From the NCBI GenBank assembly GCA_016795285.1, contig JAEUIC010000019.1, positions 10,442-74,441 on the forward strand: a stretch of 64,000 nt of DNA, given 5' to 3'. Source of the DNA: Planctomycetota bacterium. GTDB taxonomy: Bacteria > Planctomycetota > B15-G4 > SIAN01. Under the pieces are notes generated by a model. The model had not been told where the DNA came from. It made no database searches and saw only the letters and a program-made list of their open reading frames with translations. The position numbers and the translations under genes were made by a program. Positions 445 to 44,031 of this stretch are shown here, in pieces (position 1 is the stretch's first letter; each line of letters begins with the position of its first letter).

Positions 445-635
445 CGTCGTAGAGACTCCTCGAGCCGCGCCGCCCACCTCCCGGTAGGCGCGCGCGGCCC
501 GCTACCATTCGACCCGTCTCGTTCGCTCCGCCGTTCGACCGGCTGATCCACTCCACGTTCGCTCGCACGCGGCGCGCGCAGCACTCCACCCGACGATCCG
601 CCGCGGTGCGAACCTCTTCGAAGAAGGATGCCACG

Positions 636-3600
636 ATGGTGCGCGTTTCGATGGTCGGCACGCTCTTGTTGGTCGGCGCCGTCCTCCCGGTCTTCGCCAC
701 CCACCGCACCGCCGCCGGCACGCCGGCCCGCCGCGGATCGGTCGGCCCGAACGCGGGGCTCGACGGGGCGCCGCTGCTGCCGGCCAACGCGGTCGGCACG
801 TGGCGACTCGACAGCCTGCTCGACGCGGCGACCATCACCGGCATCGACCCGAGCGACGTCGATCCCGCCACCTTCGTCCTCCACGATCTGCGCTTCGACG
901 GCCCTGCCGGCGGAATCGTCCCGGCCGAGCTGCCGTTCGGTAGCGGCAAGGTCGCGACCGTCAACGGCGCCGCCCGCCTGACCGCGACCGGCAAGGCGGC
1001 CGCCTTCAAGATCAAGGTGCCGAAGACCGACGCGAGCGACGTCGGCGCGATCGCCTACAAGCTGCGCTCGAGCGACTGCAGCGAGGTCGCCCTCCTGCGC
1101 GACACGAGCGCGCTCTCGATGTTCGGCGCGAACGGCGGCGGTCCGGGCGGCCCGGGCGGCGGCAACTTCGGCGTCCCGTTCGGCGGCGGCGGCCCGCCGA
1201 TCCCGTTCGCGGGCGGTCGCTTCGGAGCGCCGCAAGGTGGCGGCGCTGGCGGTGGCGCGGGCGGTCCCGCCGGCGGGCGACCGCCGCAGGGCGGGCCCCC
1301 TGGCGGCGCCCCTCCGGCGGGCGGCCCCCCGCAAGGCCCCGGCGGCGCGCCGGGCGGCGGTGGCGCTCCGGCGGGAGTCGGGGCACCGCCTGCCGGTGGC
1401 CCACCGCCGGGTGGCGGGCCGGGGCCGGGCGGTCCGGGCTTCGGCCCCGGCGGCGGTCCTGGCGGCCTCGCCAACATGATCGCTGACATGAACCCGCGCG
1501 ACCTGCTCGGCAACGAGGTGCGCAAGCTCGAAGCCGACGGCGAGTGGCACACGCTCGCGCGGACCAACAAGGCGGGTGGCGGCGGCAACCGCTTCATGGG
1601 GATGCCGCAGCAAGCCGACTCCGGCGCGCCGCTCGAGGAGCTGGCGCTGGTCGTGCTGGTGCCGGCCGACAAGGCGGAGAGCGGGGTCACCGTCGATCTC
1701 GAATTCGTCCACGTGCTCGACTCGAAGGCCGACTACGCGGCGAAGACGGCAGCCCCGTGCACGCTCGAGCGCGCCCGCGTCCTCCACTCCGGCATGCACT
1801 TGAACACGCCGGCGTCGATCACCTGGCGGTTGGTGCCGCCCGCCGACGCGAAGCTGATCGCCGGCCTCACCGCGCTGAACGACGAGCCGTTCCAGCTGCT
1901 GATCCATGCCACCGCCGGCGGCAAGCGCGAGACGCTGCTCGATCGCGTCTGCGAAGGGGGCGACGCCGTCGAGCCGCTCGCGATCGACCTCTCGGCCTTC
2001 GCCGGACAGGAGACCGCGCTCGAGGTCGAGGTGATCGAGGAGGTCGAACCGAACGTCGCCTTCCTGCTGCAGCCGCTGGTCTACGGCGCGCGCCAGGACG
2101 GCGTGCGCAACGTGATGCTCTATTTCTGCGACACGCTGCGCGCCGACGCGCTGTCGAGCTACGGCAACTCGCGGCCGACGACGCCCCACCTCGACGCGCT
2201 CGCCGCCGACGGCATCCGCTTCGAGCGCTGCTTCAGCCAGGGGGCATGGACCTACGTCTCGATGCCCTCGTCGCTCTCCTCGCTCTTCCCGAGCGTGAAC
2301 GGCGTCAAGCTCGGCGGCGAACAGATCGCCGGCTCGGTGACGACCATCGCCGAGGCGTTCCGCGAGGCGGGCTACCTGACGGCCGCCTTCATCCGCAACG
2401 ACTTCGTCGGCCCCACCACCCACACCGAGCAGGGATTCGACTTCTTCTTCCCGGGCGACACGATCGGCGCCGCGGGCGGCGCCGGCTTGCAGCAGGCGAT
2501 CGCCCGCATGTTCGGCCGCAATCCGCTGAATGCCGACGCCGGCCAGGGCGGGATGAACTTCAACAGCGGCTCGTCGCGCGACCTCTTCGTGAAGGCGAAG
2601 CCGTGGCTCGACCAGTACCGCGACGTGCCGTTCGTCCTCTACCTGCACGCCGTCGATCCGCACGACCCGTACGACCCCGACCAGTTCGATCGCTCGAAGT
2701 TCATGAGCGCTGAGGACGACGCGCAGTTCGCGGCGATGCAGACGAAGCTGAACGACTTCCGCGCGAAGCAGCAGCCGCAGTTCGGCGGGCCGGGCGGCGC
2801 CATCGTGGTCCCGGGACCGGGAGGCGGGAACTTCGTGGTCGGGCCGGGCGGCGTCGTGCAGGCACCCGCTGCAACGCCTGCTGCAACGCCTGCTGCAACG
2901 CCTGCTGCAACGCCTGCTGCAACGCCTGCCGCCAACCCCGCTGCGCCGCCTGCGACGGGCGACGCGACGGCGGCGGCGCCTGAGGCGACGCCCGCGGGCG
3001 ACGGCGCTCCCGCCGCGGTGGCCGCTGCGCCGACGCCCGCGGCACCCCCGGCGGGCGGCCGCGTACGCGGCAGCGAGGCGATGGACGAGTACATCGCCGC
3101 CGGCGTCGATCCGCACGAGTTCATGCGGTTGCAGCGGATCATCTACGACGCCGAGCTGCACTACTTCGATCGCCACTACAAGCAGCTGCGCGACTACTTC
3201 GCCGAGCACGGCCTCACGCAGCACTCGATCTTCAGCTTCAACGCCGACCACGGCGAGGAGTTCCTCGACCATGGCGCCACCGGCCACGGCCAGTCGGTCT
3301 ACGCCGAGCTGAACCACGTGCCGTGGATCCTCTCCGCACCCGGCTTGTTGCCGGCCGGCAAGGTGGTCGGCGACAACGTCGCCAACGTCGACCTCGGCCC
3401 GACGCTGCTCGGCCTCGCCGGCGTGACGCCGCCCGACACGATGCAGGGGCGCAACCTCGCCGCCGAGCTGCAGAACGGCGACGAGCTGCCCGCCTTCGCG
3501 ATCTTCACCGAGAAGTGGGAAGGCGGCATGTTCGGCGGCGGCAGCGGCGGCGACGCCAACGGCGAGATCCTCGGCAGCTTCGCGGTGATCGAAGGGCGCT

Positions 3601-3884
3601 GGAAGACGATCGTCCATCGCACGATGGGGCCGGCGGTCGGCGCCGACGGCAAGCCGAGCGGCAAGCAGGAGTTGAAGATCGACTACGAGGTCTACGACCT
3701 GCTCGCCGACATGACCGACTCGCACGATCTCGTCGCCAGCGAGCGGCCGCGCGCCGAAGCGGCGAACCAGCGGCTCGAGCTGTGGGTCGCCGAGATGCGG
3801 AAGCTGAACGCGCGCTACGCCGGCGAGCAGACGGAGAACGACGGCGCGCTCGACATGATGCGGGCGCTCGGCTACGCGCAGTGA
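636..3884 (+). CDS. Secreted sulfatase-like hydrolase/transferase (alkaline-phosphatase superfamily) with low-complexity inserts
   Basis: ORF 606..3884. The ATG at 636 has an AGGA 8 nt upstream and is followed by a classic signal peptide, MVRVSMVGTLLLVGAVLPVFA. The central region NVMLYFCDTLRADALSSYGNSRPTTPHLDALAADGIRFERCF and the C-terminal HGEEFLDHGATGHGQSVY are sulfatase/LTA-synthase-like. There is no canonical C/S-x-P-x-R formylglycine motif. It contains a Gly/Pro-rich linker of about 120 aa and an (AATP)n insert. Confidence 0.7.
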   Translation: MVRVSMVGTLLLVGAVLPVFATHRTAAGTPARRGSVGPNAGLDGAPLLPANAVGTWRLDSLLDAATITGIDPSDVDPATFVLHDLRFDGPAGGIVPAELPFGSGKVATVNGAARLTATGKAAAFKIKVPKTDASDVGAIAYKLRSSDCSEVALLRDTSALSMFGANGGGPGGPGGGNFGVPFGGGGPPIPFAGGRFGAPQGGGAGGGAGGPAGGRPPQGGPPGGAPPAGGPPQGPGGAPGGGGAPAGVGAPPAGGPPPGGGPGPGGPGFGPGGGPGGLANMIADMNPRDLLGNEVRKLEADGEWHTLARTNKAGGGGNRFMGMPQQADSGAPLEELALVVLVPADKAESGVTVDLEFVHVLDSKADYAAKTAAPCTLERARVLHSGMHLNTPASITWRLVPPADAKLIAGLTALNDEPFQLLIHATAGGKRETLLDRVCEGGDAVEPLAIDLSAFAGQETALEVEVIEEVEPNVAFLLQPLVYGARQDGVRNVMLYFCDTLRADALSSYGNSRPTTPHLDALAADGIRFERCFSQGAWTYVSMPSSLSSLFPSVNGVKLGGEQIAGSVTTIAEAFREAGYLTAAFIRNDFVGPTTHTEQGFDFFFPGDTIGAAGGAGLQQAIARMFGRNPLNADAGQGGMNFNSGSSRDLFVKAKPWLDQYRDVPFVLYLHAVDPHDPYDPDQFDRSKFMSAEDDAQFAAMQTKLNDFRAKQQPQFGGPGGAIVVPGPGGGNFVVGPGGVVQAPAATPAATPAATPAATPAATPAANPAAPPATGDATAAAPEATPAGDGAPAAVAAAPTPAAPPAGGRVRGSEAMDEYIAAGVDPHEFMRLQRIIYDAELHYFDRHYKQLRDYFAEHGLTQHSIFSFNADHGEEFLDHGATGHGQSVYAELNHVPWILSAPGLLPAGKVVGDNVANVDLGPTLLGLAGVTPPDTMQGRNLAAELQNGDELPAFAIFTEKWEGGMFGGGSGGDANGEILGSFAVIEGRWKTIVHRTMGPAVGADGKPSGKQELKIDYEVYDLLADMTDSHDLVASERPRAEAANQRLELWVAEMRKLNARYAGEQTENDGALDMMRALGYAQ
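2868..2927 (+). repeat. Perfect 12-bp tandem repeat gctgcaacgcct x5, in-frame, encoding (AATP)5 inside the sulfatase-like CDS
   Basis: Five identical direct copies at 2868-2927, followed by degenerate copies (gccgccaacccc...). Confidence 0.85.
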
Positions 3885-23960: not shown

Positions 23961-24035
23961 TGGCTGCCCGACTAGGACTCGAACCTAGACTTACGGAGTC
24001 AGAGTCCGCTGTCCTACCAATTAGACGATCGGGCA
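23961..24035 (-). tRNA. tRNA-Gln (anticodon CUG)
   Basis: Reverse complement reads UGCCCGAUCGUCUAAUUGGUAGGACAGCGGACUCUGACUCCGUAAGUCUAGGUUCGAGUCCUAGUCGGGCAGCCA. 7-bp acceptor stem, D-loop AAUUGGUAG, anticodon stem GCGGA/UCCGU with loop CU-CUG-AC, T-loop GGUUCGAGUCC, encoded CCA. Confidence 0.85.
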
Positions 24036-24219: not shown

Positions 24220-25488
24220 TTACGTGCCGCCGGCCGTCGCTCCCGCGGGCGCGCGCCAGCTCCCGGCCCCCGCGAAGCTCCCCTCCGAGCCGTCGACCTC
24301 GATCCGTTGGCCGGTGAGCGGGCTCGCGTAGACGAAGCGGTCGCCGTGGCGCTCGCGGAGGTAGGGGCCGTCCGCCTGCACCTTCCCGCCGCCGCCCGGC
24401 AGGTCGACCGTGAGGCGCGGGATCGCGAGCCCGCTCACCTTGCCTTGCAGCGAGGCGATCAGCTCGAGCCCGCGCGCGAGGCCGACGCGCAGGTGGCGAA
24501 CGCCGGCGACCGGATCGCACTGGTGGAGGTAGTAGGCGCGCAGCCCCGCCCGCAGCAGCGCGCGCGACAGCGCCAGCAGGTCGTCGGCCGTGTCGTTGAC
24601 GCCGCGCAGCAGCACGCCCTGGTTGCTGACCACGACGCCCGCCGCCGCGAGCCGGCGCACCGCCGCCGCCGCTTCGGCGGTCACCTCGCGCGCGTGGTTG
24701 AAGTGGGTGTTGAGCCAGAGCGGCGCCGCCGGCGCGAGCGCGGCCAGCAGCTCGTCGTCGATCCGCATCGGCAGCGTCACCGGCACCCGGCTGCCGAGCC
24801 GCAGCAGGTCGAGATCGCACCGCTCGCGCAGCGCGCGCACCACCTTGCCGACGTAGCTCGGCGGGAGGTTCAGCGGATCGCCGCCGGAGAGCAGCACGTC
24901 GCGGATCGCGGGACGCGCGGCGATGGCGGCGACGCCGGCGTCGAGCTCCGCGTCGGAGAGGCGCGTGAAGCCCCCCTCCCACTCGCGCCGCCGCATGCAG
25001 TGGCGGCAGAGCGTGCTGCAGAAGTTGGTGAGCAGGAAGAGCGCGCGATCGGGGTAGCGGTTCACCACCCCCTTCGCGATCTCGAGTTCCTCTTCGCGGA
25101 AGGGATCGGGCTGCCCGCTTGCCTGCGCGTCGCTCTGCTGCTCGGCCGGGTCGGGCAGCACCTGCGGCAGGATCGGATCGCGCGGATCGTCGGGGCGCGC
25201 GAGCGCGAGGTAGCACGGCGTGACCGAGACCTCGCTCGCCGCGCCCGCCTTCTCGAGCGCCGCGCGCATCGCCGGCGCGACCGGGAAGTCGGCGCCGAGC
25301 AGCTCGAGCAACGCGGCGACGCTGGTCACGCGATGGGCGAGCTGCCAGCGCCAGTCGTGCCACTCGCCCGACGCGACCGCGCCACCCCACGCGCGCTGCG
25401 CGAAGGGCGGCAGCGGGAGGGTCGAGGGGAGCGAAGCGAGTCGCGGTGGCGAGCGCGGCGACGAGGGGAGCGAAGGGTGGGCGTCCAT
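24220..25488 (-). CDS. KamA-family radical SAM protein (lysine 2,3-aminomutase / EpmB-like)
   Basis: CSTLCRHCMRR is the CxxxCxxC cluster motif in KamA context (...ALFLLTNFCSTLCRHCMRRRE...SGGDPL...). Start taken at MDAHPSL; an upstream in-frame ATG lies at 25557. Confidence 0.8.
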   Translation of the reverse strand: MDAHPSLPSSPRSPPRLASLPSTLPLPPFAQRAWGGAVASGEWHDWRWQLAHRVTSVAALLELLGADFPVAPAMRAALEKAGAASEVSVTPCYLALARPDDPRDPILPQVLPDPAEQQSDAQASGQPDPFREEELEIAKGVVNRYPDRALFLLTNFCSTLCRHCMRRREWEGGFTRLSDAELDAGVAAIAARPAIRDVLLSGGDPLNLPPSYVGKVVRALRERCDLDLLRLGSRVPVTLPMRIDDELLAALAPAAPLWLNTHFNHAREVTAEAAAAVRRLAAAGVVVSNQGVLLRGVNDTADDLLALSRALLRAGLRAYYLHQCDPVAGVRHLRVGLARGLELIASLQGKVSGLAIPRLTVDLPGGGGKVQADGPYLRERHGDRFVYASPLTGQRIEVDGSEGSFAGAGSWRAPAGATAGGT

Positions 25489-25573
25489 GAGCGGGGCGCA
25501 TCGTAGGGAACGAAGTGCTGGCGGCGCAGTCGCCGCTCGCCGCTCGCCGTTCGCCACCGGCTCCCGGCGGTCG

Positions 25574-32509: not shown

Positions 32510-33318
32510 CACGATCGGTGGGTCAGACGAGGTAGGCCTTGCGGCGGAACTTGAGGAGCGCGAGGGCCAGCGCGATGGCGCCGACCCAGGCGAGGACCTG
32601 GAGCGAATCGGCGGCGGGCAGCAGCTCGAGCTCGTAAGGGCGCGCCAGCGTCGTGTAGCGCTCGTCGCCGGAGAGGCGGGCGAGCAGCGTGTAGACGTGG
32701 TGGAGCAGCGTGTAGCGCGCCATGGTGCCGGGCATCGACGCCGCGAACGGCTCCCAGACGAAGAGCAGCACGAGGCCGACCAGCAGCGGCCACTTGATCA
32801 CCACCGACAGCAGCACGAAGACCGCGCTGTACGCCACCATCGAGAGCGCCATCCCGGCCAGCGCCGTGCCGAGCAGCGGCAGGTCGACCCACAGCGCCTC
32901 GCCGCCCATCTGCCCCACCGTCGCCAGGTAGAGCACCGCGTAGGCCGCGCCGAGCAGCAGCGACGACGTCACCACCGCGGTGAGCCAGCGACCGAGCAGC
33001 AGCGCGCTGCGCGGCACCGGCCGCGTCAGCAGGTAGGGCAGCGTCTTGCCCTCGATCTCCTCGCCGATCGCCCCGCACCCGACGAAGAGCGCCACGATCA
33101 GGTTGATGGCGGGGAAGCAGAGGTTGGTCAGCACCGCGATGAAGCCGACGCCTCCCTTGTAGCCCGCCCCCTCGCGCCAGAGCTCGAGCCCCGGCGCGAT
33201 CAGCGGCAAGAGGCAGAGCAGCGCCAGCGTGGCGCCGCGCCGCCCGCGCAGCAGCGCGAGCCCCGAGACGCGCACCGTCACGGCGATGCCGTCGAGCAGC
33301 CCGCGCCGCGGCGGCCGC

Positions 33319-34322
<1,004 letters not shown>

Positions 34323-34326
<4 letters not shown>

Positions 34327-35305
34327 CGGGTGCCCGCCTCGACGACCACGTCCTGCCGGCGCAGCACCGAGACGATCACCAGCAGCGACGCGCCGCACCA
34401 GCAGAGCACCGAGGTGGCCGCCTGCAGCGGCGTCGACGACGCGAAGATCTTCACCGCCTCGAAGACTCCCTCGAGGTTGCCGCGCACCGCGCCGTCCGCC
34501 TCGCTGGTCGCCTTCTCGAAGAGGCCACCGATGTCGTAGAGGTGGTAGCCGAGCGAGAAGAGCGCGTCGTTGATGGAGACGGCCGCCAACGCCGAGACGC
34601 CGCGATGGCTGCCCGCCATCGAGGTGAACGACGGCAGCAGGATCACCAGCGAGAACCAGATCAGCCCGGCGAACATCGGCCGCCGGCAGATCGAGGAGAC
34701 CGCGAGGATGGTGAGCGAGTAGACCAGCACCACCGCGCCGTTCTGCACGATGATCGGCACCAAGTGGGGCAACGCGGCGGTGAACGCCCCGTCGGCCGGA
34801 TCGGAAAGGACCCCCATCAGCCAGAGCAGCAGGTTCGGCACCAGCGTGAACATCGCCATGAACCAGCCGATGATCCCGAGCTTGCCGAGCACGTAGTCGC
34901 CGAGCGTGAGCGGCCGCGACAGGTAGAGCGGCAGCGCACCGCTCGCGCGATCGCGGGCGATCAGCCCCGAGCCGAAGATCACCGCGTAGACCATCAGGAA
35001 CATCGAGTTCAACCGCGTCAGCGCCGGGTACTGGATCACCCGATAGGGCGCGAGCTGGTCGAAGATCGCGAAGGTCTCGACCGGCAGGAAGTTGGGCCGG
35101 AAGTAGAAGAGGTAGTTGAGCAGGAAGAGCAGCGCCGTCGGGACGCAGCTCGCCGCCATGAAGCCGCGCAACGAGAGCGTGAGCAGCCAGCCGCCCTTGG
35201 TGGCGAGCGCGTTCTTCACCCCCATCGCGACGATCGGCGCGGCGCGGAACGCGCGACGCTTCAGCGTGCCGTCCCAGCGGCGGTAGGAGCGGTCGTAGAC
35301 CGGCA

Positions 35306-35306
<1 letters not shown>
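34323..35306 (-). CDS. ABC-2 type transporter permease
   Basis: Real start MPVYDRSYRRWDG... at 35306 (ATGA overlap with the upstream ATPase stop). The 5' part of listed ORF 34323..36431 is the out-of-frame shadow of the ATPase gene. Confidence 0.7.
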
Positions 35307-36313
<1,007 letters not shown>

Positions 36314-36485
36314 GCGCGTCTCGCAGGCGACGAGGCTTCGGGAGGCGGCGCATGATAGGTCGCAGCCGACGCCGCCGAGCGCGGCGCGCTTCGGCGCGCC
36401 CCGAAACCGGCCGGGCGCCGCCGCGGTTCACCGGCCGCGCCGACCGCTCCCGCGCGCGGTGGTCGAGCCGTGGCGTCCGCCGCGG

Positions 36486-37640
36486 TCAACTCGACGCGGC
36501 GGGCGCCGCGACCTTGTCGAAGTCGCCGCCGTCGGCGCTGCGATTGACGAGGTAGCAGCTCTTGCAGGCGCCGTAGGGATCGTCGGAGTGGACGCGCCGG
36601 CGCATCTCGCGGTACTTCGGCCCGTTCCACTCGGTGAAGAAGTCCGACTCCTTCACGTTGCCGTTCACGTGGATGCCGGCGAGGCAGCACGGCACGACGT
36701 CGCCGAACGGCCCGACGTACATGCGCTGCCAGAGGAACCAGCAGCGGATCGGCGGCGGCCGCGGCGGCGGCGCCGCCCCATCGCTCGCGGCCACCGCGAA
36801 CGGCGGCGGCAGGTTGACCGACAACCCGAGCTTCCGCGCCACCTCGGCGGCCCGCAGCAGCATCTCGTTGGTGCGCTGCTTCGACTCGAGCGAGCCGTCG
36901 AGCATCTCCTCCTGCACCGCCGGATCGGCGACCATCCGCACGAGGTGGGAGACGGTGACGTGGTCGCCGCCGAGCTCCTTCGCCAGCTCGAGGAACGCCG
37001 GCAGCTCGGGCAGCGTCCGTCTCATCAAGATCGTGTTGAAGTGGAGCGGCGCGCGCTGCGCGGCCGGCAGCGCCGCGCGCGCCTTGCCGTAGGCGCGCAC
37101 GTTGGCGACCACCTCGTCGAAGCGCGCGCCGATGCGCAACGAGTCGTAGGTCGCCGCGGTGGCGCCGTCGATCGAGACGGTCAGCAGCCCCATGATCCCG
37201 GCCATCCGCTCGAGGAGCCGCTCGCCCTTCATGAGGGTGGCGTTGGTCACCATCTCGAGCTTCACGCCGAAGCGGTCCATGTCGTCGAACTTCTCGGCGA
37301 GGCGCGGCGTCATCATCGGCTCGCCGAACGCCGAGAGCTGGACGATCTCCGCGGCCGGATAGAGCTCCTCGAGCACCCGCTTGTAGACCGGCTCCTCCAT
37401 CCGCCAGTCGATCCCCTTGCCGTACGCCTGCGGGCAGAAGCTGCAGGAGAGGTTGCAGACGGTGGAGTTGGTCGTGTTGATCCAGGTCGGCAGCGAGTCG
37501 CACACCTCGGCGTCGCGCGCCTCCGCTTCCTGCGCCCGCCGGCGGTTCTCCGCCTTCAGCGCGGCGAGCTCCTCGCGCGACGGCACGGCGCCGGCGCGCA
37601 CCCGGGCGGTCACCTCGCGGAGTCGGTCGAGGAAGTCCAT
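36486..37640 (-). CDS. Radical SAM enzyme with C-terminal SPASM-type auxiliary cluster domain
   Basis: ATG at 37640 (MDFLDRLREV...). The N-terminal ~45 aa are a charged helix. CNLSCSFCPQ is the CxxxCxxC radical SAM motif. The C-terminal ...CWFLWQRMYVGPFGDVVPCCLAGIH...GACKSCYL is a SPASM/twitch-like Cys cluster. The long upstream part of ORF 36486..38261 is R-rich junk. Confidence 0.8.
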   Translation of the reverse strand: MDFLDRLREVTARVRAGAVPSREELAALKAENRRRAQEAEARDAEVCDSLPTWINTTNSTVCNLSCSFCPQAYGKGIDWRMEEPVYKRVLEELYPAAEIVQLSAFGEPMMTPRLAEKFDDMDRFGVKLEMVTNATLMKGERLLERMAGIMGLLTVSIDGATAATYDSLRIGARFDEVVANVRAYGKARAALPAAQRAPLHFNTILMRRTLPELPAFLELAKELGGDHVTVSHLVRMVADPAVQEEMLDGSLESKQRTNEMLLRAAEVARKLGLSVNLPPPFAVAASDGAAPPPRPPPIRCWFLWQRMYVGPFGDVVPCCLAGIHVNGNVKESDFFTEWNGPKYREMRRRVHSDDPYGACKSCYLVNRSADGGDFDKVAAPAASS

Positions 37641-37656: not shown

Positions 37657-39438
37657 TCAGCGCGCCGCGAGCGCGAGCGGCTCGTCGTGGCCGGTGAGGA
37701 AGTCGTGCCGCCAGAGCGTCCCTTCGGGCGCGCGCAGGTAGTAGAGATAGCGCCCGCCGGCGCCGAAGGCGGGCGGCGTGTCGAGCCGCACCGCCGCGCC
37801 GATGCGCCGCGGCGCCGCGGCCGCGTCGGCGGCGAGCGCCACGAAGGTCGCGAAGGCGAGCCCGCGCGCGCTGCCGGGCGCGCTCGCCGGCGTGGCGAAC
37901 AGGAGGCCGTTGCTGCCCGGGATCGGCAGCGGCTCGAACGCGCCACCCCAGACCAGCGCGGGCCGCTCGCCCTGCAGCGGCGCGAGGCGCACCACCTGGT
38001 GGCGCGGCGCTCCGTCGTCGCCGTGCGGCGGCGGCGACTCGCAGAAGAGCAGCAGCTCGACGCCGTCGGCGGCCGGCTGCACCGCCGAGACGTGCAGCGG
38101 CAGCTCGATGCGCCACGGCGAACGACCGTCGCGCGCGCAGAACTGCAGCTGCGTGCCGGTCGCGGTGTCGACCAGCGCGCACCACAGGTAAGGAAGCGCC
38201 AGCACGGCGCGACAGCTGCCGCGCGCGCACGGCAGCACCGCCTCCGCGACGCCGGACGCATCGATGCACTCGGCGCGACCGTCGACGCGCGCCCGCACCA
38301 GGAGCCCGTCCCCTTCGACGAAGGCGACCCGGCGCAGCCCGTCGACGCGGCGCGCCACGGTGCGCGGCCCCGCGAGGTCGTGGAGGCGCTGCACGTAGGT
38401 GCCCGGCGCGCGCTGCACCGCCTCCAGCACGAGGCCGCTCGCCGACGAGACGGAGAGTTCGCCGACCAGCCGCCGCCGCGTGCCCGTGGCGAGCTCGAGC
38501 AGCACGAACTCGTCGGGCCGCTCGGTCGCGACCACCACCACCGCGCCGCCGGCCGCGAAGGCGACCGCGCGCGGCTCGTCGTCGAGGTCGTGCCAGCGCG
38601 CGCGGCTCGCCGAGTCGCCGTCGTCGTCGCCGTCGCCCGCGGCGGCGAGCGGCAGGAGCAGCACGCCCGCCGAAGCGCTCCGCGTGCGGCGCGTCGCGAT
38701 GGCCAACGTGCCGCTCGCTTCGTCGAGCGCGAAGGAGCAGGCGGGCGGCCGCGACGACGGCGGTGACGCCACGGCGCCGGCGAACGCCTCGCGCGGCGTC
38801 GTCGACGCCAGCGGCGGGTAGCGATCGAGCAGGCGCGCGCCGCGGCCGCTCGCCGTCGCGCCGAGCTTGAAGGCGCCGTCGTTCGCGCGATCGGCCGACT
38901 CGAGTGGCTCGAGCGCGAGCCCCGGTGCCACCTCTGCGACCGCCAGGTCGGGCGTCGCGCCGACCACCAGAAGCGACTCGATCCGCCCCAACCAGAGCGT
39001 CCCGTCGCCCCGCCGCCGCAGCGGCAAGCGGAAGTCGAGTTCGAACGGCCCCGAACGGAGCGCCGTCCCGGCGCCGAGGAGGCGTTCCTCGGCCGAGCGC
39101 GCGATCCAGTCGGCGAACGGATCGTGCGTCTCGCCGAGCGCGACGCCGCCGAGCGTCGCCCGTTCCACCACCACGTCGAGCGGCGCGAGGAAGGCGACTT
39201 GTCGCGCCCCCTCCGGCAGCTCGAGCGTGCCGCGCCACGAACCGACCAGTTCGAACGGGTCGTCGTGGCCGGCGAGCGCGAGCGTCGCGCCGACGAGCCG
39301 CTGGCCGGCGAGGTGTTCCGCCGCGAGCTCCGCGCCGGTGCGGTCCGCCTCGAAGGGCGCCGTCTGCGCGAGCCGCCACGCCGCGCCGAGCAGCGCCGCC
39401 GCGCCGAGCCACCCGAGCGCGACGGAGCTGCGCTTCAC
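37657..39438 (-). CDS. Hypothetical secreted protein (593 aa), no recognisable family
   Basis: GTG at 39438 overlaps the stop of the upstream PfkB gene (GTGA). Signal-peptide-like VKRSSVALGWLGAAALLGAAWRLAQTAP. Balanced composition thereafter. The 5' part of listed ORF 37657..40329 is R-rich junk. Ends 16 nt before the rSAM start. Confidence 0.5.
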   Translation of the reverse strand: MKRSSVALGWLGAAALLGAAWRLAQTAPFEADRTGAELAAEHLAGQRLVGATLALAGHDDPFELVGSWRGTLELPEGARQVAFLAPLDVVVERATLGGVALGETHDPFADWIARSAEERLLGAGTALRSGPFELDFRLPLRRRGDGTLWLGRIESLLVVGATPDLAVAEVAPGLALEPLESADRANDGAFKLGATASGRGARLLDRYPPLASTTPREAFAGAVASPPSSRPPACSFALDEASGTLAIATRRTRSASAGVLLLPLAAAGDGDDDGDSASRARWHDLDDEPRAVAFAAGGAVVVVATERPDEFVLLELATGTRRRLVGELSVSSASGLVLEAVQRAPGTYVQRLHDLAGPRTVARRVDGLRRVAFVEGDGLLVRARVDGRAECIDASGVAEAVLPCARGSCRAVLALPYLWCALVDTATGTQLQFCARDGRSPWRIELPLHVSAVQPAADGVELLLFCESPPPHGDDGAPRHQVVRLAPLQGERPALVWGGAFEPLPIPGSNGLLFATPASAPGSARGLAFATFVALAADAAAAPRRIGAAVRLDTPPAFGAGGRYLYYLRAPEGTLWRHDFLTGHDEPLALAAR

Positions 39439-40355
39439 GACGCGCTCCGCACGACCACCTGCGCGGCGAGCTCGGCGCAGCGGACCGCCTCGAACTCGCA
39501 GACGAGCAGCTGCTCGGCGTTGGCGGCGCCGGCCGCCGCGCCCGCGCGCAACGCCGCCTCGAGCGGCTCTCCGCGATCGAGCGCCAGCGCGAAGGCGCCG
39601 GTGAGCGCATCGCCCGAGCCGACCCCGTTCACCTCGCGGATCGGCGGCGGCGTCGCGACCAGATGCGACGCGGCGGTGACGCAGTGGAGCGCGTGCGGAC
39701 CGTCGGAGACGACCACGCCGTCGGCGCCGAGTTCGCGGCGCAGCTGCGGCAGCGCGGCGGCATCGGCGAGCCCGTAGGTCGAGCGCAGCTCGTCGAGGTT
39801 GGCGCGCACCCAGTGCGGCGGCACGCGCGCGGCGGCGTGCGCGGCGGCGCCATAGGCGTCGAGCACCACCCGCTTGCCGGCGGCGCGCGCGGCGGCGACG
39901 AACTCGCGCGGGAGCTCGTGGAAGGCGCCGTCCGGCGTGCTGCCGTTCACGGTGACGGTCGAGACGCGCGGCAGCAGGGCGGCGAAGCGGGTGCGCAACT
40001 GATCGGCCTCGACGGCGTCGCCGCCGCGCCCCTCCTCGAGGAACTCGCGGAAGCGCAGGTTCGTGGCGTCGTAGAGGCAGGTGGAGAGGCGGGTCGGCGC
40101 CGCCACCGCGACGAGCTCCGCCTCGACCCGCTCGCGCGCGAGGCAGTCGCGCAGCATCGCGCCGGTCGGGCCGCTCGCGGTCGAGAGCGCCACCGCCTGC
40201 CCGCCGAGCCGCACGATCACGCGCGCCGCGTTCAGCCCCTTGCCGCCCGAGCTCGAACGCTCCTTCACGCCGCGCACGACGGTCCGCGGCGGCGCCTCCT
40301 CGCGGAAGACGAGGTAGCGATGGACGCACGGATTGAGCGTCACCGTGAGGATCAT
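39435..40355 (-). CDS. PfkB-family carbohydrate kinase (1-phosphofructokinase/tagatose-6-P kinase-like)
   Basis: MILTVTLNPCVHRYL is a FruK/LacC-type N-terminus. ...NGVGSGDALTGAFA is the PfkB C-terminal ATP-binding signature. ATG at 40355 overlaps the kinase-gene stop (ATGA). Confidence 0.8.
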   Translation of the reverse strand: MILTVTLNPCVHRYLVFREEAPPRTVVRGVKERSSSGGKGLNAARVIVRLGGQAVALSTASGPTGAMLRDCLARERVEAELVAVAAPTRLSTCLYDATNLRFREFLEEGRGGDAVEADQLRTRFAALLPRVSTVTVNGSTPDGAFHELPREFVAAARAAGKRVVLDAYGAAAHAAARVPPHWVRANLDELRSTYGLADAAALPQLRRELGADGVVVSDGPHALHCVTAASHLVATPPPIREVNGVGSGDALTGAFALALDRGEPLEAALRAGAAAGAANAEQLLVCEFEAVRCAELAAQVVVRSAS

Positions 40356-43300
40356 CGGCGTCGCTCCTCCCCGTGGATCGCGCGCAGCAACGGATCGCGC
40401 TCGCTCATGCGCGTGCGCACCGCCGGCGACGCGACGCCGAGCAGGCGCCGCTCGGTGCGCCGGCGCGCCTCCTCGAGCGACTTCGCCGCCGCCTCGGAGT
40501 GGCCCAACTCGCCCGCGATCAAGCCGTGCACCCAGTAGATCTCCGCCGCGCGCCGCCGCTCGATGCCGGCGGCCGACCCTTCGCGCAGCGCCTTGCGCGC
40601 GATCGCCAGCGCCCACGAGCCGCGCTTCATGTCGCGGTAGCAGAGCGCGAGCGCCGCCAGTCCGCGCGCTTCGAGGCGGCCGACGGCGAGCGAGTGGGCG
40701 CGCGCGATGGCGCGCCGCGCGCAGCGGATGGCGCGGTCGATCGAGTGGCCCGAGAAGCGCTCCCAGCGGTAGAGCAGGCTCAGCGAGCCGAGCGCGCTCA
40801 CCGCGAGGTAGCCGTCGTCGACGCGCAGCGCGAGGCGCAGCGACCGGACGTAGGGCTTGAAGGCGGCATCGGGATCGCCCGAGCGCGCCTCGATGTCGGC
40901 GCGCACGTACTCCGCCTGCGCGAGGTGGCGCAGGTCGAGGTCGGAGGCGGCCGACTTGCGCGCCACCTCGCACGCGCGGCGCGCCTTGTCCCAGTCGCAC
41001 AGCTCGCGCAGGAGGCGGGCGCTGCCGAGCACCAGCGCGCGATGGAGCGGCCGGAGCGCCGGCCCGCGCACGATCGAGCGCCCTTGTGAGAAGGCCTGCT
41101 CCGCTTCGTCGAACCGCTCGAGCTCGAGCAGCAGGTTGCCGCGCTCCTTGAAGTAGCGGCCGATCGACGCGACCGGCGCGCCGGCGTCGATCACCTGCTC
41201 GGCCTGCTCGAGCGCCTGCGCGGCGCGCTCCTCGTCGCCGCTCCAGAGCAGCACCTCGGCGAGGTCGAGCAGGATGAACGCGCGCTCCGCTCCTTGGCCG
41301 CGCGCGGACCGTTGCGCCGCTTCGTCGGCGGTGCGCAGGTAGGACTCGGCAGCGAGGAAGCGGCCGGTCCGCGAGGCGAGTCGGCCGAGGCCGTGGAAGG
41401 CGTGCGAGCGGACGCCGGCGTCATCGAGCTGCGCCGAGAGCTTGGCCGCCTCGGTCCAGGTGGCGCGCTCCTCCTCGCGCCGGCCGAGGCGATGGGCGAG
41501 CCCGCCGCGCAGCACGAGCGCCTGCGCCAGCAGCCGCTCGTCGGGCGGCGCCACGCGCGCGGCGGCGACCGCCGAGGCGACCAGCCGCCACGCCCGCTCG
41601 GGCGACCCTTCGAGTTCGAGCACGCGCGTCGCGCCGCGCAGCGTCGCCGCCAGGATCGTCCGCTCGCCGCCGAGGTCGGCATGCCACGCCGCCTTCAGCG
41701 CGGCGCGCGGCGGCGGCGACGGCTGCGCGAGCTCGCGCTGGTAGTAGCGGGCGGCGAGGCGATGGGTCTGCTGGCGCCGCTCGAGCGCGGTGGCGTGCAG
41801 CACGTGGCGCTGGAAGAGCGGCTCGCGGAAGCGGAGCTCGCCGGCGATGCGCTGCAGCGGACCGCCCTCGGCCAGCAGCGGCGCGAGGCGCAGGTCGAAC
41901 TCGGCCGCCGGCAGCGCGAGCATGTCGCGCAGCACCTGTTCGCGCACGTCGGCGCCGAGCACCGCGGTCGTCTCGAGCAGCTCGCGCTCGACGCTGCCGA
42001 GGCGCGCGAGCCGCTGCGCGTAGCGCTCGGCCAGGAGCGGCGGCAGCGAGCGGATCGCCGTCTTCTTGGCGGCGAGCGTGTCGAGCTTGCCGCGCGAGCG
42101 CAGCCACGAGGCGAGCTCGACGGCGTTGCCGGCGCTGCCCGCGGCGACCTCGTGGAGGCGCGCCGCGACCCGCTCGACGTGCGCTTCGTCGAAGCCGAGG
42201 TCGTGCGCCAGCGTGGTGAACGCCTCGCGCGGCGGATCGACCAGCGCGAGGCGCATGCTCCCCTTCGCCAGCGAGGCGTGCAGCGCGGCGAGCGTCCGCT
42301 CGGTCGGCAGCTCGTGCGCACGGGTGATCACCAGCAGGATCGGCGCGCGCTGCGCTTCCGCCACCAGCGCGTCGAGCGTGCGCAGCGTCTCGCCGTCAGC
42401 GTGCTCGGCGGCATCGAGCACCAGCAGCAGCGGCGCCTGCCGGGTGATGGCGACGAACAGCTCGACCAGCGCGGCGCGCAACGGCGCGAGCTGGCGCGCC
42501 GCCTTGCCGGCCCCTTCGCGCAGGAAGGCGCGCAGGAGCTGCTGCGCCTCGGGCCGCTCGGGCAGCAGTTCGCGCAGCTGCTGCTCGGCGCGCGCGTCGA
42601 CCGCGGCCGGGCCGGCGGCGGCCGCCTCGGAGAGCCCGCACGCGTCGGCCAGCAGCTCGCGCAATGGCTCGAGCGGCTGACCCGACTCGCGACCGCTCGC
42701 GACCAGGAAGAAGCCCTGCGGCCCGACCCGCTCGAGGCGATCGGCGAGCGCATCGACGAGGCGCGTCTTGCCGACGCCGGGCTCCCCCTCGAGCACGACG
42801 CGACGCAGGCTGCCCGCGAAGGCCGCGCGCGCCTCGTCGACCAGCAGCGCCAGTTCGTGCTGGCGACCGAGCAGGCGGGTGGCGCGCCGCACCGCGAGGC
42901 GACGGCGGCCGGCCGAGACCTGCAGCGAGACCGGCGCGGTGGCGGTGCGCCAGAAGTCGGAGCGCTCGGCGCCGACGAACGCCGCGGCGGCCTGTTCGGC
43001 GCTGGCGAGGCGGGCCGCCGGGTCGCGCTCGAGGAGCGCCTGCACGATTCGCTCCAGGAAGTAGCTCAGCTCGGGGCGCAGCTCGGTGAGCGGGGTCGGG
43101 TCGCGCGTCTGGAGCGCGGCGACGTAGGCGTCGTAGCCGAGGTCGCGCTCGCGCGCCCACGGATGGTGGCCGGCCGCCATCTCGTAGAGGACGACGCCGA
43201 GCGCGAAGAGGTCGCTCTGCGGCGTCGCGGGGGCGCCGGCGAGCTGCTCGGGCGCGGCGTAGGCGACGGTCCCGAGGAAACGGCCCGACGAGGTGGCGCC

Positions 43301-43891
43301 CGAGGACGGCGGCGGCGTCGGATGGGCGCCCGCCTCGGGGGGCAGCGGCTCCTCGGCGGTGATCAGGCGGGCGAGGCCGAAGTCGACCAACTTCACCTGG
43401 CCGCGCTCGTCGAGGAAGAGGTTGGCCGGCTTCAGGTCGCGGTGGACGATGTTGCGCCCGTGGACGAAGGCGAGCGTCTCGGCGACTTGGCGGCCGACCT
43501 CGCGCACCACCGGTTCGGGCTGCGGCCCCTCGAGCTCGAGGCGGCTCTGCAGGCTGCCGCCGGTGAGGAGTTCCTGCACGATGTAGTGGACCCGGCGATC
43601 GCCGCCGAGGCGCAAGCTGCCGATCTCGTAGACGCGGGCGATCCCGGCGTGGCCAGCCCCGAGCCCGACCCCCGCCTCGCGCTTGAAGCGGCGCACGATC
43701 TGGGCGTCGGGGGCGAAGCTCGGGTCGAGGACCTTGAGCGCGACCTCGTCGCCCGAGCGCAGGCCGCGGCGTCGCCCGACGACCGTGGCGCGGTAGACGG
43801 CGCCCATCGCGCCGGCCCCGAGGAGGCCGCGGATGCGGTAGCCGCGGAGCTCCTCCGGAAGGGCGAGAAAACGGGTGGCGGGGCTTGGCAT
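40352..43891 (-). CDS. Ser/Thr protein kinase fused to a P-loop ATPase domain and a long TPR-like C-terminal region
   Basis: Kinase subdomains: GLLGAGAMGAVY...ALKVL...HRDLKPANLFL...DFGLA...APE. Downstream Walker A GEPGVGKTRLVD. About 500 aa of Ala/Leu-rich helical repeats. ATG at 43891; a GTG at 43933 is also possible. Confidence 0.85.
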   Translation of the reverse strand: MPSPATRFLALPEELRGYRIRGLLGAGAMGAVYRATVVGRRRGLRSGDEVALKVLDPSFAPDAQIVRRFKREAGVGLGAGHAGIARVYEIGSLRLGGDRRVHYIVQELLTGGSLQSRLELEGPQPEPVVREVGRQVAETLAFVHGRNIVHRDLKPANLFLDERGQVKLVDFGLARLITAEEPLPPEAGAHPTPPPSSGATSSGRFLGTVAYAAPEQLAGAPATPQSDLFALGVVLYEMAAGHHPWARERDLGYDAYVAALQTRDPTPLTELRPELSYFLERIVQALLERDPAARLASAEQAAAAFVGAERSDFWRTATAPVSLQVSAGRRRLAVRRATRLLGRQHELALLVDEARAAFAGSLRRVVLEGEPGVGKTRLVDALADRLERVGPQGFFLVASGRESGQPLEPLRELLADACGLSEAAAAGPAAVDARAEQQLRELLPERPEAQQLLRAFLREGAGKAARQLAPLRAALVELFVAITRQAPLLLVLDAAEHADGETLRTLDALVAEAQRAPILLVITRAHELPTERTLAALHASLAKGSMRLALVDPPREAFTTLAHDLGFDEAHVERVAARLHEVAAGSAGNAVELASWLRSRGKLDTLAAKKTAIRSLPPLLAERYAQRLARLGSVERELLETTAVLGADVREQVLRDMLALPAAEFDLRLAPLLAEGGPLQRIAGELRFREPLFQRHVLHATALERRQQTHRLAARYYQRELAQPSPPPRAALKAAWHADLGGERTILAATLRGATRVLELEGSPERAWRLVASAVAAARVAPPDERLLAQALVLRGGLAHRLGRREEERATWTEAAKLSAQLDDAGVRSHAFHGLGRLASRTGRFLAAESYLRTADEAAQRSARGQGAERAFILLDLAEVLLWSGDEERAAQALEQAEQVIDAGAPVASIGRYFKERGNLLLELERFDEAEQAFSQGRSIVRGPALRPLHRALVLGSARLLRELCDWDKARRACEVARKSAASDLDLRHLAQAEYVRADIEARSGDPDAAFKPYVRSLRLALRVDDGYLAVSALGSLSLLYRWERFSGHSIDRAIRCARRAIARAHSLAVGRLEARGLAALALCYRDMKRGSWALAIARKALREGSAAGIERRRAAEIYWVHGLIAGELGHSEAAAKSLEEARRRTERRLLGVASPAVRTRMSERDPLLRAIHGEERRR

Positions 43892-44031
43892 CACGCTCGA
43901 GCCAGGGTGGCGGTCGCCTTGACTCGACCGCACGGCTCCTAGAGACTACCGCGCCCTTTCTCGGGCACTAAGGAACAGCTCGACCGTCCTCGACCATCCG
44001 CTCGGTCCGGTCACCGGTCGGTCGCGACGCC

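Follow-up and report, generated by a model that had tools for sequence, protein, structure and literature searches.

What does a radical S-adenosylmethionine (SAM) enzyme act on when no gene for a precursor peptide accompanies it? The question is raised by a gene at positions 36486-37640 (reverse strand, stop codon included) of a 64,000-nucleotide stretch of Planctomycetota DNA (assembly GCA_016795285.1, contig JAEUIC010000019.1), here called the window, whose G+C content is about 73%. A sequence-only reading of this DNA had taken the motifs of the enzyme to mark a peptide or protein modifier, and had proposed as candidate substrate the secreted 593-aa orphan protein that is encoded directly upstream. 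Our comparisons lead elsewhere. Judged by its sequence, the enzyme belongs to an uncharacterised clade within the radical SAM twitch/SPASM enzymes, most like the BtrN class, and we tentatively favour, by analogy, a BtrN-like function of this twitch-type enzyme, whose substrate would be a small molecule of the carbohydrate type or a unit of a glycan. All coordinates are positions in the window, and features are on the reverse strand unless stated otherwise.

The radical SAM core and its auxiliary-cluster domain

The open reading frame (ORF) encodes a protein of 384 aa that starts with MDFLDRL and is 100% identical to GenBank entry MBL8841728.1, 'radical SAM protein [Planctomycetes bacterium]'. 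That the gene is real follows from the identical or near-identical proteins in public metagenome-assembled genomes (MAGs), from the 226 homologues found, and from the 26 columns that are invariant in an alignment of 75 sequences, which had been preceded by one of 19. Both Pfam domains score above their gathering cutoffs, Radical_SAM (PF04055) with 43.2 bits (cutoff 29.5) and SPASM (PF13186) with 46.7 bits (cutoff 21.5). The CX3CX2C cluster motif (37434-37457, reverse strand), which reads C62-N-L-S-C66-S-F-C69-P-Q, has C62, C66 and C69 invariant in the 75 homologues, and a GGE-like GEP motif at residues 106-108 is conserved in the alignment. The cluster motif and the Pfam score place the protein in the radical SAM superfamily, and the earlier description of a radical SAM enzyme with CNLSCSFC and a Cys-containing C-terminal domain thus stands. 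The AlphaFold2 model has an overall predicted local distance difference test (pLDDT) score of 92. At the N-terminus, the alignment and the model agree on a two-helix hairpin of residues ~1-45 (37506-37640, reverse strand) with a conserved ELAxLKAxNxR sequence, in which helices 2-15 and 22-41 are modelled with pLDDT 94-98. There was no Pfam match to PqqD or to a recognition element (RRE) for peptides that are made by the ribosome and modified post-translationally (RiPPs), and the modelled N-terminus consists of two helices and contains no winged-helix RRE.

The C-terminal domain (36555-36743, reverse strand), recognised by the alignment and by a BtrN profile match, has the pattern C300-x12-G313-x4-C318-C319...C359-x2-C362. 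Beyond the SAM cluster, the invariant Cys residues of the 75 homologues are C300, C318, C359, and C362, and C319 is present in at least 90%. A full SPASM domain is defined by seven or eight Cys in total. Its first half-motif, CX9-15GX4C, is present as C300-x12-G313-x4-C318, but of the second, CX2CX5CX3C followed by a gap and a further C, only C359-x2-C362 was found in the enzyme and its relatives; the last 22 residues after C362 contain no Cys, and none follows this position in the relatives either. Half a SPASM motif combined with a CxxC therefore represents the truncated 'twitch' form, which has room for one auxiliary cluster. When the family profile was compared with the PDB sequences, C300/C318/C359/C362 paired with C169/C187/C232/C235 of BtrN, which we take from the BtrN crystal structure to be the four ligands of its auxiliary cluster, and the adjacent G-x4-C, W, and aromatic (F/Y)..R positions were paired as well. 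It is the profile of the family that detects this relationship, as the C-terminal domain alone found no match in the PDB. The domain is, on these alignments, a BtrN-type twitch domain with one predicted site for an auxiliary [4Fe-4S] cluster.

In searches with the whole protein among solved structures, the single sequence matched BlsE (1.5e-5) and BtrN (~1e-3), and the profile matched PqqE (3.9e-14), BtrN (4e-13), BlsE (5e-12), and DesII (2e-11); the anaerobic sulfatase-maturating enzyme anSME was matched with E = 3e-4 and only in the core, residues 52-155. Foldseek with the AlphaFold2 model listed SkfB first, and also DesII, BlsE, SuiB, CteB, anSME, viperin, and PqqE, but as all TM-scores are alike at 0.5-0.6, these matches indicate the fold class only. 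None of the NCBIfam models reached its cutoff, the best being TIGR04311 (76.3 bits, cutoff 400), TIGR04317 (76.1 bits, cutoff 380), and NF033640 (71.1 bits, cutoff 170), and the best 25 of 32 matches did not include the anSME family model. In agreement with the sequence-only reading, which had named assignment to a cofactor-biosynthesis family as an outcome that would speak against it, the enzyme thus falls into no named family of this kind. By the families' own criteria it is placed outside BtrN, BlsE, DesII, anSME, QhpD, PqqE, MftC, and every NCBIfam family. What could not be upheld is that the combination of motifs marks a peptide or protein modifier: the domain is a single-cluster twitch, there is no RRE, and the matches include BtrN, BlsE, and DesII besides PqqE.

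Glycan context of the wider relatives, and neighbours in the core clade

Relatives that are 27-38% identical to the enzyme carry the same C-x12-G-x4-CC...CxxC and W..Y..R signature, and the invariant residues that they share with the closer homologues outside the clusters are N133, S156-x-D158-G159, R169, M206, E212, W304, Y308, W338, and R347. Among them is an unnamed family of 332-aa proteins that lacks the N-terminal hairpin in the alignment and occurs in Nitrospira, cyanobacteria, Chloroflexota, Acidobacteriota, some Planctomycetota, and others. In the 35 loci of this family that represent glycan clusters, the gene has a preceding family 2 glycosyltransferase (GT2) gene in 31, a NodU-type carbamoyltransferase gene in 23, a GT9 heptosyltransferase gene in 19, HldE in 9, and GmhB in 7 (loci are designated by L and members of the wider family by P numbers). 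Fusions and overlapping genes point in the same direction: P0136 and P0199 are fusions of a GT4 with the radical SAM/twitch protein, the radical SAM gene of P0137 shares 4 nt at its start with a separate GT4 gene, and P0143 and P0167 join two tandem radical SAM/twitch domains to a class III aminotransferase in one protein. The latter matches the logic of BtrN and BtrS, in which oxidation comes before transamination. No context found in the wider family resembles a RiPP or protein-maturation cassette.

The cluster in L055-L088 was also noted for its own sake. It combines genes for an MftF-like GT2, the 332-aa radical SAM protein, the carbamoyltransferase, GT9, HldE, and GmhB (for example L066, 7253-11020, or L058, which is Nitrospira moscoviensis NZ_CP011801.1, 2690488-2711486), and suggests a heptose-containing glycoconjugate that is altered by radical chemistry. 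Literature searches for the enzyme family or for a cluster of GT2, heptosyltransferase, carbamoyltransferase, and radical SAM genes found no description, and the cluster has apparently not been described so far. Further fusions in the wider family are tandem radical SAM/twitch proteins (P0140, P0176, P0215, P0235) and a TPR protein with tandem radical SAM domains (P0269); the fusion proteins span 775-1481 aa and may reveal the chemistry of the twitch clade.

The twitch anatomy, the matches to enzymes of sugars and cyclitols, the absence of RiPP features, the conservation of the gene as a lone gene, and the glycan context of the relatives are the reasons for which we favour, still tentatively, a carbohydrate substrate. 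In such a mechanism, the CX3CX2C cluster would cleave SAM to generate a 5'-deoxyadenosyl radical, which would remove one hydrogen atom from the substrate, be it a sugar phosphate, a nucleotide sugar, a cyclitol, or a unit of a glycan, and the fully Cys-ligated auxiliary cluster would accept an electron, as in the case of BtrN. The substrate would thereby be oxidised at a secondary alcohol, or epimerised or rearranged in a related reaction, and the product might enter an envelope or glycoconjugate pathway that is encoded elsewhere in the genome, with the enzyme acting as a stand-alone step. The core and the BtrN-type domain are evident in the protein, and it is the hydrogen abstraction from a carbohydrate and the electron transfer to the auxiliary cluster that we infer. 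Within the closer homologues, two hints agree with a role in sugar metabolism: a PfkB sugar kinase gene is part of the coupled operon in the window and lies directly upstream of the radical SAM gene in L018, and L002 has UDPGP, Ddl, and DapB genes upstream and an AlgX/SGNH-like gene downstream.

Several observations weigh against this assignment. The link to carbohydrates comes from relatives that are only ~30-35% identical, a distance at which the specificity of radical SAM enzymes shifts easily. Twitch enzymes can act on peptides, and SkfB is the top Foldseek match. Sugar-related neighbours are few among the closer homologues, with PfkB in 7 loci and UDPGP in a single one, and neutral synteny could account for them. 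The wider family also has other contexts, as P0142 lies with a PALP enzyme, P0139 with housekeeping genes, and P0134 with a CarS-like gene and another radical SAM gene, and the best NCBIfam matches, although far below their cutoffs, are the putative metalloenzyme maturases TIGR04311 and TIGR04317.

The closer homologues form a core clade. All proteins with more than 40% identity come from uncultured Planctomycetota MAGs and metagenomes, and an exhaustive search gave about a dozen representatives at 50% identity in this clade, and 192 overall at E < 1e-30. We compared 47 non-redundant Planctomycetota loci, whose radical SAM proteins are 40-90% identical to the query, with flanks of up to 10 kb per locus. 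No conserved neighbour of the radical SAM gene was found on either side in these 47 loci, and this includes a de novo clustering of the flanking ORFs. The gene order of the window (cysteinyl-tRNA synthetase / Ser/Thr kinase - PfkB - orphan - radical SAM - four ATP-binding cassette (ABC) transporter genes / arginase) is retained in L006, L007, L011, and L090 (radical SAM proteins 74-90% identical), and its upstream part is retained in L013 and L014 (73-74%), whose DNA stops just past the radical SAM gene. L001 (66%) has kept kinase, orphan, and radical SAM genes and has lost the PfkB and ABC genes, and L008 (66%) has no genes in common with the locus of the window. The orphan is missing in L016, L018, and L002 (59-63%). 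In the clade at ~45% identity, which comprises about 35 loci, the neighbours vary and no gene family is common to the clade. Many of its loci have a same-strand gene for a 500-700-aa protein upstream of the radical SAM gene, which is SBP_bac_5 in 9 loci and, in single cases, a sulfatase, a probable glycosyltransferase with TPR, a cytochrome/HEAT protein, or a B12-binding radical SAM protein.

Two further associations in the core clade were examined. A QueC-like gene lies directly downstream in L045 and L052, which belong to the 40-41% branch; as this adjacency is seen in two loci only, it was read as chance or probably local synteny, and the QueE-like role that it suggests was rejected. A partnership with a B12-binding radical SAM protein, whose gene is adjacent in L016 and L038, was rejected, as the two genes are not orthologous (21% identity). 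L033 and L038 come from one MAG (JAUILN01, isolate Co_bin.47) and represent two core-clade paralogues, 44-45% identical to the query, in differing contexts, one of which sits after the gene of the B12-binding radical SAM protein.

The NCBIfam matches raise the question of whether the enzyme could be a trans-acting maturase of a protein or metalloenzyme that is encoded elsewhere, such as a sulfatase-type or a tungsten/molybdenum enzyme. TIGR04311 and TIGR04317 are the top models, with 135-145 bits for the 332-aa relatives, and the status of a lone gene would fit. However, the cutoffs of 380-400 bits are far above all these scores, and the names of the TIGR04311 and TIGR04317 maturases rest on gene context only. 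Cys-type sulfatase genes adjoin the radical SAM gene or are near to it in L048/L051, L016, and L047, but only here and there, and Planctomycetota have sulfatases in abundance. Furthermore, the core-only match to the anSME profile and the single auxiliary site make a three-cluster architecture impossible in this enzyme. The sulfatase-superfamily gene of the window itself (606-3884, forward strand) encodes a 1092-aa protein with an N-terminal region of ~500 aa followed by a Sulfatase-family domain. At the formylglycine position it has S-M-P-S-S instead of C/S-x-P-x-R, and it is therefore probably not a formylglycine-type sulfatase but a different enzyme of the alkaline phosphatase superfamily, possibly LtaS/EptA-like. 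A maturase acting in trans is thus an unlikely explanation.

Another reading would make the enzyme a lipid modifier like Gms, Tes, or Grs, with the membrane lipids of these Planctomycetota as substrates. Gms belongs to the SPASM/twitch subfamily of radical SAM enzymes and has reported homologues in 71 Planctomycetes, and bacterial gms genes are reported to cluster with tes or mss (PMC11214058). It is conceivable that the amphipathic-looking N-terminal hairpin serves membrane association. P0134, a 32% identical relative, lies beside the CarS-like gene and the further radical SAM gene mentioned above, and the genes for B12-binding radical SAM proteins in L016 and L038 could be seen in the same light, but these are the non-orthologous genes already described. 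A tes or mss neighbour was found in 0 of the 47 loci, and the structure of Tes/GDGT-MAS matches weakly, with a profile E of 1e-4 and a TM-score of 0.43. Gms has two auxiliary clusters according to its published description (PMC13459092), which sets it apart from an enzyme with room for one. On these published criteria of gene context and auxiliary-cluster number we rejected an identity with Gms, and a lipid-modifying function in general appears improbable.

The upstream orphan, the operon, and the search for a precursor gene

The orphan gene (37657-39438, reverse strand) is a real ORF for a 593-aa protein with an N-terminal hydrophobic helix, a signal or anchor, followed by an all-beta region, as deduced from the family alignment and a low-confidence AlphaFold2 model that was based on three sequences (pLDDT 48). 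It matched neither Pfam nor NCBIfam families, which agrees with its earlier designation as an orphan. A search of 5.8 billion proteins gave only 3 relatives, and more were recovered solely by their position in related loci. The conserved portion is a C-terminal GRYLYYLRA...DFLTG..EPL motif, which lies inside the all-beta region of this model, and no Cys is invariant in the family alignment.

If this protein were modified by the radical SAM enzyme before export, in the way of anSME or QhpD, the two genes should belong together, and to some extent they do. Every homologue found of the orphan is encoded directly upstream of the radical SAM gene (the window, L007, L090/L091, L011, L012, L006, L013, L014, L001), and in L001 the pair is intact while the genes on both flanks differ. 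The conservation of the C-terminal motif and the tight coupling of the operon could also be taken to favour the pair. This adjacency in every orphan-bearing genome is the reason why we still carry the reading. However, the orphan-bearing loci represent one syntenic lineage and thus count as roughly one observation. The orphan was found only where the radical SAM protein is at least 66% identical, and it is absent from L008, although this locus reaches 66%, from L016, L018, and L002, and from the entire ~45% clade. As hidden analogues, the 500-700-aa upstream genes of that clade were rejected, since they are heterogeneous and their hhalign probability against the orphan is 0.5%. The orphan also evolves much faster, with 57%, 37%, and 32% identity where the radical SAM proteins have 90%, 79%, and 74%. 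The radical SAM enzyme thus long predates the orphan and has a much wider distribution; the orphan cannot be the general substrate of the family, and at most a lineage-specific one. Together with the absence of invariant Cys and with one auxiliary cluster compared to the two of anSME, this leaves the proposed substrate relationship correct in its observation of adjacency and doubtful in its interpretation: we regard it as improbable, and the orphan is more likely a lineage-specific neighbour in the operon. Even less probable is a specific version, in which the enzyme and the fast-evolving beta-rich orphan would be a lineage-specific protein-modification pair inside the kinase-PfkB-orphan-radical SAM operon, and the orphan a third kind of whole-protein substrate, after the sulfatases of anSME and the QhpC of QhpD. 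The comparative data thus make the orphan a poor first substrate candidate.

The operon itself begins with a gene for a 1193-aa Ser/Thr protein kinase with AAA_16 and TPR domains (40352-43933, reverse strand; Pfam assignments from the orthologues in L006, L007, and L090), followed by the gene for the 306-aa PfkB-family sugar kinase (39435-40355, reverse strand; Pfam PfkB 1.6e-29; 163 bits with an NCBIfam hexose kinase subfamily, cutoff 216). The kinase stop overlaps the PfkB start (ATGA), and the PfkB stop overlaps the orphan start (GTGA); the three genes are therefore probably on a single translationally coupled transcript with the radical SAM gene as the last gene. Between the orphan stop and the ATG of the radical SAM gene there are 16 nt that contain a Shine-Dalgarno-like GAAGGGA. 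These junctions suggest translational coupling.

Downstream of the radical SAM gene, two pairs of an ABC ATPase and an ABC-2 permease are encoded (35306-36313, 34323-35306, 33319-34398, and 32523-33395, reverse strand; Pfam ABC_tran, DrrA1-3_C, ABC2_membrane_2). Their NCBIfam matches are DrrA/GldA-like and below the cutoffs, and synteny is restricted to relatives that are at least 73% identical. As SPASM/twitch enzymes are often RiPP maturases, as SkfB, SuiB, and CteB rank high in the fold comparison, and as exporter genes lie downstream, a RiPP maturase with a short, unannotated, or distant precursor gene had to be considered. Between 31 and 45.5 kb the genes are separated by only three intergenic gaps, of ~98, 172, and 211 bp, which leaves scant room for a precursor gene. 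The 172-bp spacer between the radical SAM gene and the first ABC ATPase gene (36314-36485, no strand) has no Rfam match, no promoter- or terminator-like site, and an unremarkable folding (z = +0.85), and no small ORF in it is kept in relatives; its sole ORFs are arginine-rich GC artefacts. The statement that this spacer is non-coding in all frames was right in its outcome but not in its reason: at 73% GC few stop codons occur, which leaves several frames open, and it is the lack of conservation that argues for a non-coding spacer. As had been noted from the sequence, there is no recognisable precursor gene, as no conserved small ORF was found near the radical SAM gene in the window or in relatives, and no precursor or RRE protein recurs across the 47 loci. 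Together with the missing RRE in the enzyme and the limitation of the ABC genes to close relatives, these results make a RiPP maturase highly improbable. The remaining probability we leave to readings other than those listed here.

In L006, L007, L090, L010, and L011, the distance between the radical SAM and ABC genes is 500-900 bp and includes an opposite-strand gene for a small protein, which the window does not have (L006 11230-11499, L007 11251-11544, and L090 10921-11457, all on the reverse strand). The protein has 89-178 aa or is larger, is weakly conserved, helical, and proline-rich, and has a signal peptide. The window has one more radical SAM gene (24220-25557, reverse strand), which is of the KamA/lysine-2,3-aminomutase (EpmB-like) type with Radical_SAM and LAM_C domains; L001 and L006 have kept it close to the gene for arginase, with 64-68% identity. 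A paper on the evolution of elongation factor P mentions Planctomycetota and radical SAM (PMC11388002). The sole Rfam match in the 64-kb window is a tRNA gene (23964-24035, reverse strand).

Comparison with known radical SAM systems

A SPASM/twitch domain in the absence of a precursor gene is, on its own, no evidence of a protein substrate, and the systems in which whole proteins are modified differ from ours. In the case of anSME, the superfamily fold is alike (TM-score ~0.55-0.59) and an RRE is likewise missing, but a full SPASM domain harbours two auxiliary clusters there, whereas the enzyme of the window has room for one. The sequence-only reading had already argued against anSME from the sulfatase-superfamily gene, which lies ~33 kb away and lacks the formylglycine motif, and we agree: with the core-only profile match, the one auxiliary site, and no C/S-x-P-x-R client in the window, an identity with anSME was rejected. 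The operon contains neither a formylglycine-type sulfatase gene nor qhp genes. The hallmark genes qhpA and qhpC of the QhpD system are absent beside the radical SAM gene, the neighbours being the kinase, PfkB, orphan, and ABC genes, and a small Cys-rich subunit gene of the QhpC type was not found near it.

The substrates of BlsE (cytosylglucuronate decarboxylase) and of DesII (TDP-sugar deaminase/dehydrogenase) are nucleotide-linked sugars in both cases. Among solved structures, these two enzymes give the best or nearly the best matches by sequence, profile, and fold. However, the similarity lies for the most part in residues ~53-218, the radical SAM core, and their family models TIGR04466 and TIGR04426 score 25-28 bits compared to cutoffs of 400-450. 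The 332-aa family is closer, with 29-34% identity over almost the whole core and twitch domain and an identical Cys signature, but its fixed glycan-gene context has no counterpart in the Planctomycetota core clade, and it is itself uncharacterised. The link between the twitch clade and glycosyltransferases is nevertheless a usable lead into a group that is sizeable, with its 192 representatives. Uncharacterised radical SAM subfamilies are numerous, and our findings contradict no expectation.

The closest parallel in architecture is BtrN, the 2-deoxy-scyllo-inosamine dehydrogenase (PDB 4M7T/4M7S). The similarity to BtrN is at the profile level only (52 bits), and BtrN has 250 aa compared to 384 aa of the enzyme described here, which has the additional N-terminal helical hairpin, a longer core, and the near-invariant C319. 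There are also no butirosin or aminoglycoside genes nearby. If the carbohydrate reading is true, BtrN-type radical chemistry would extend from antibiotic pathways to envelope or glycoconjugate biosynthesis, in Planctomycetota and in several other phyla. What the two enzymes have in common is a CX3CX2C core that is combined with a C-terminal domain with one auxiliary-cluster site, and the absence of an RRE and of a peptide partner.

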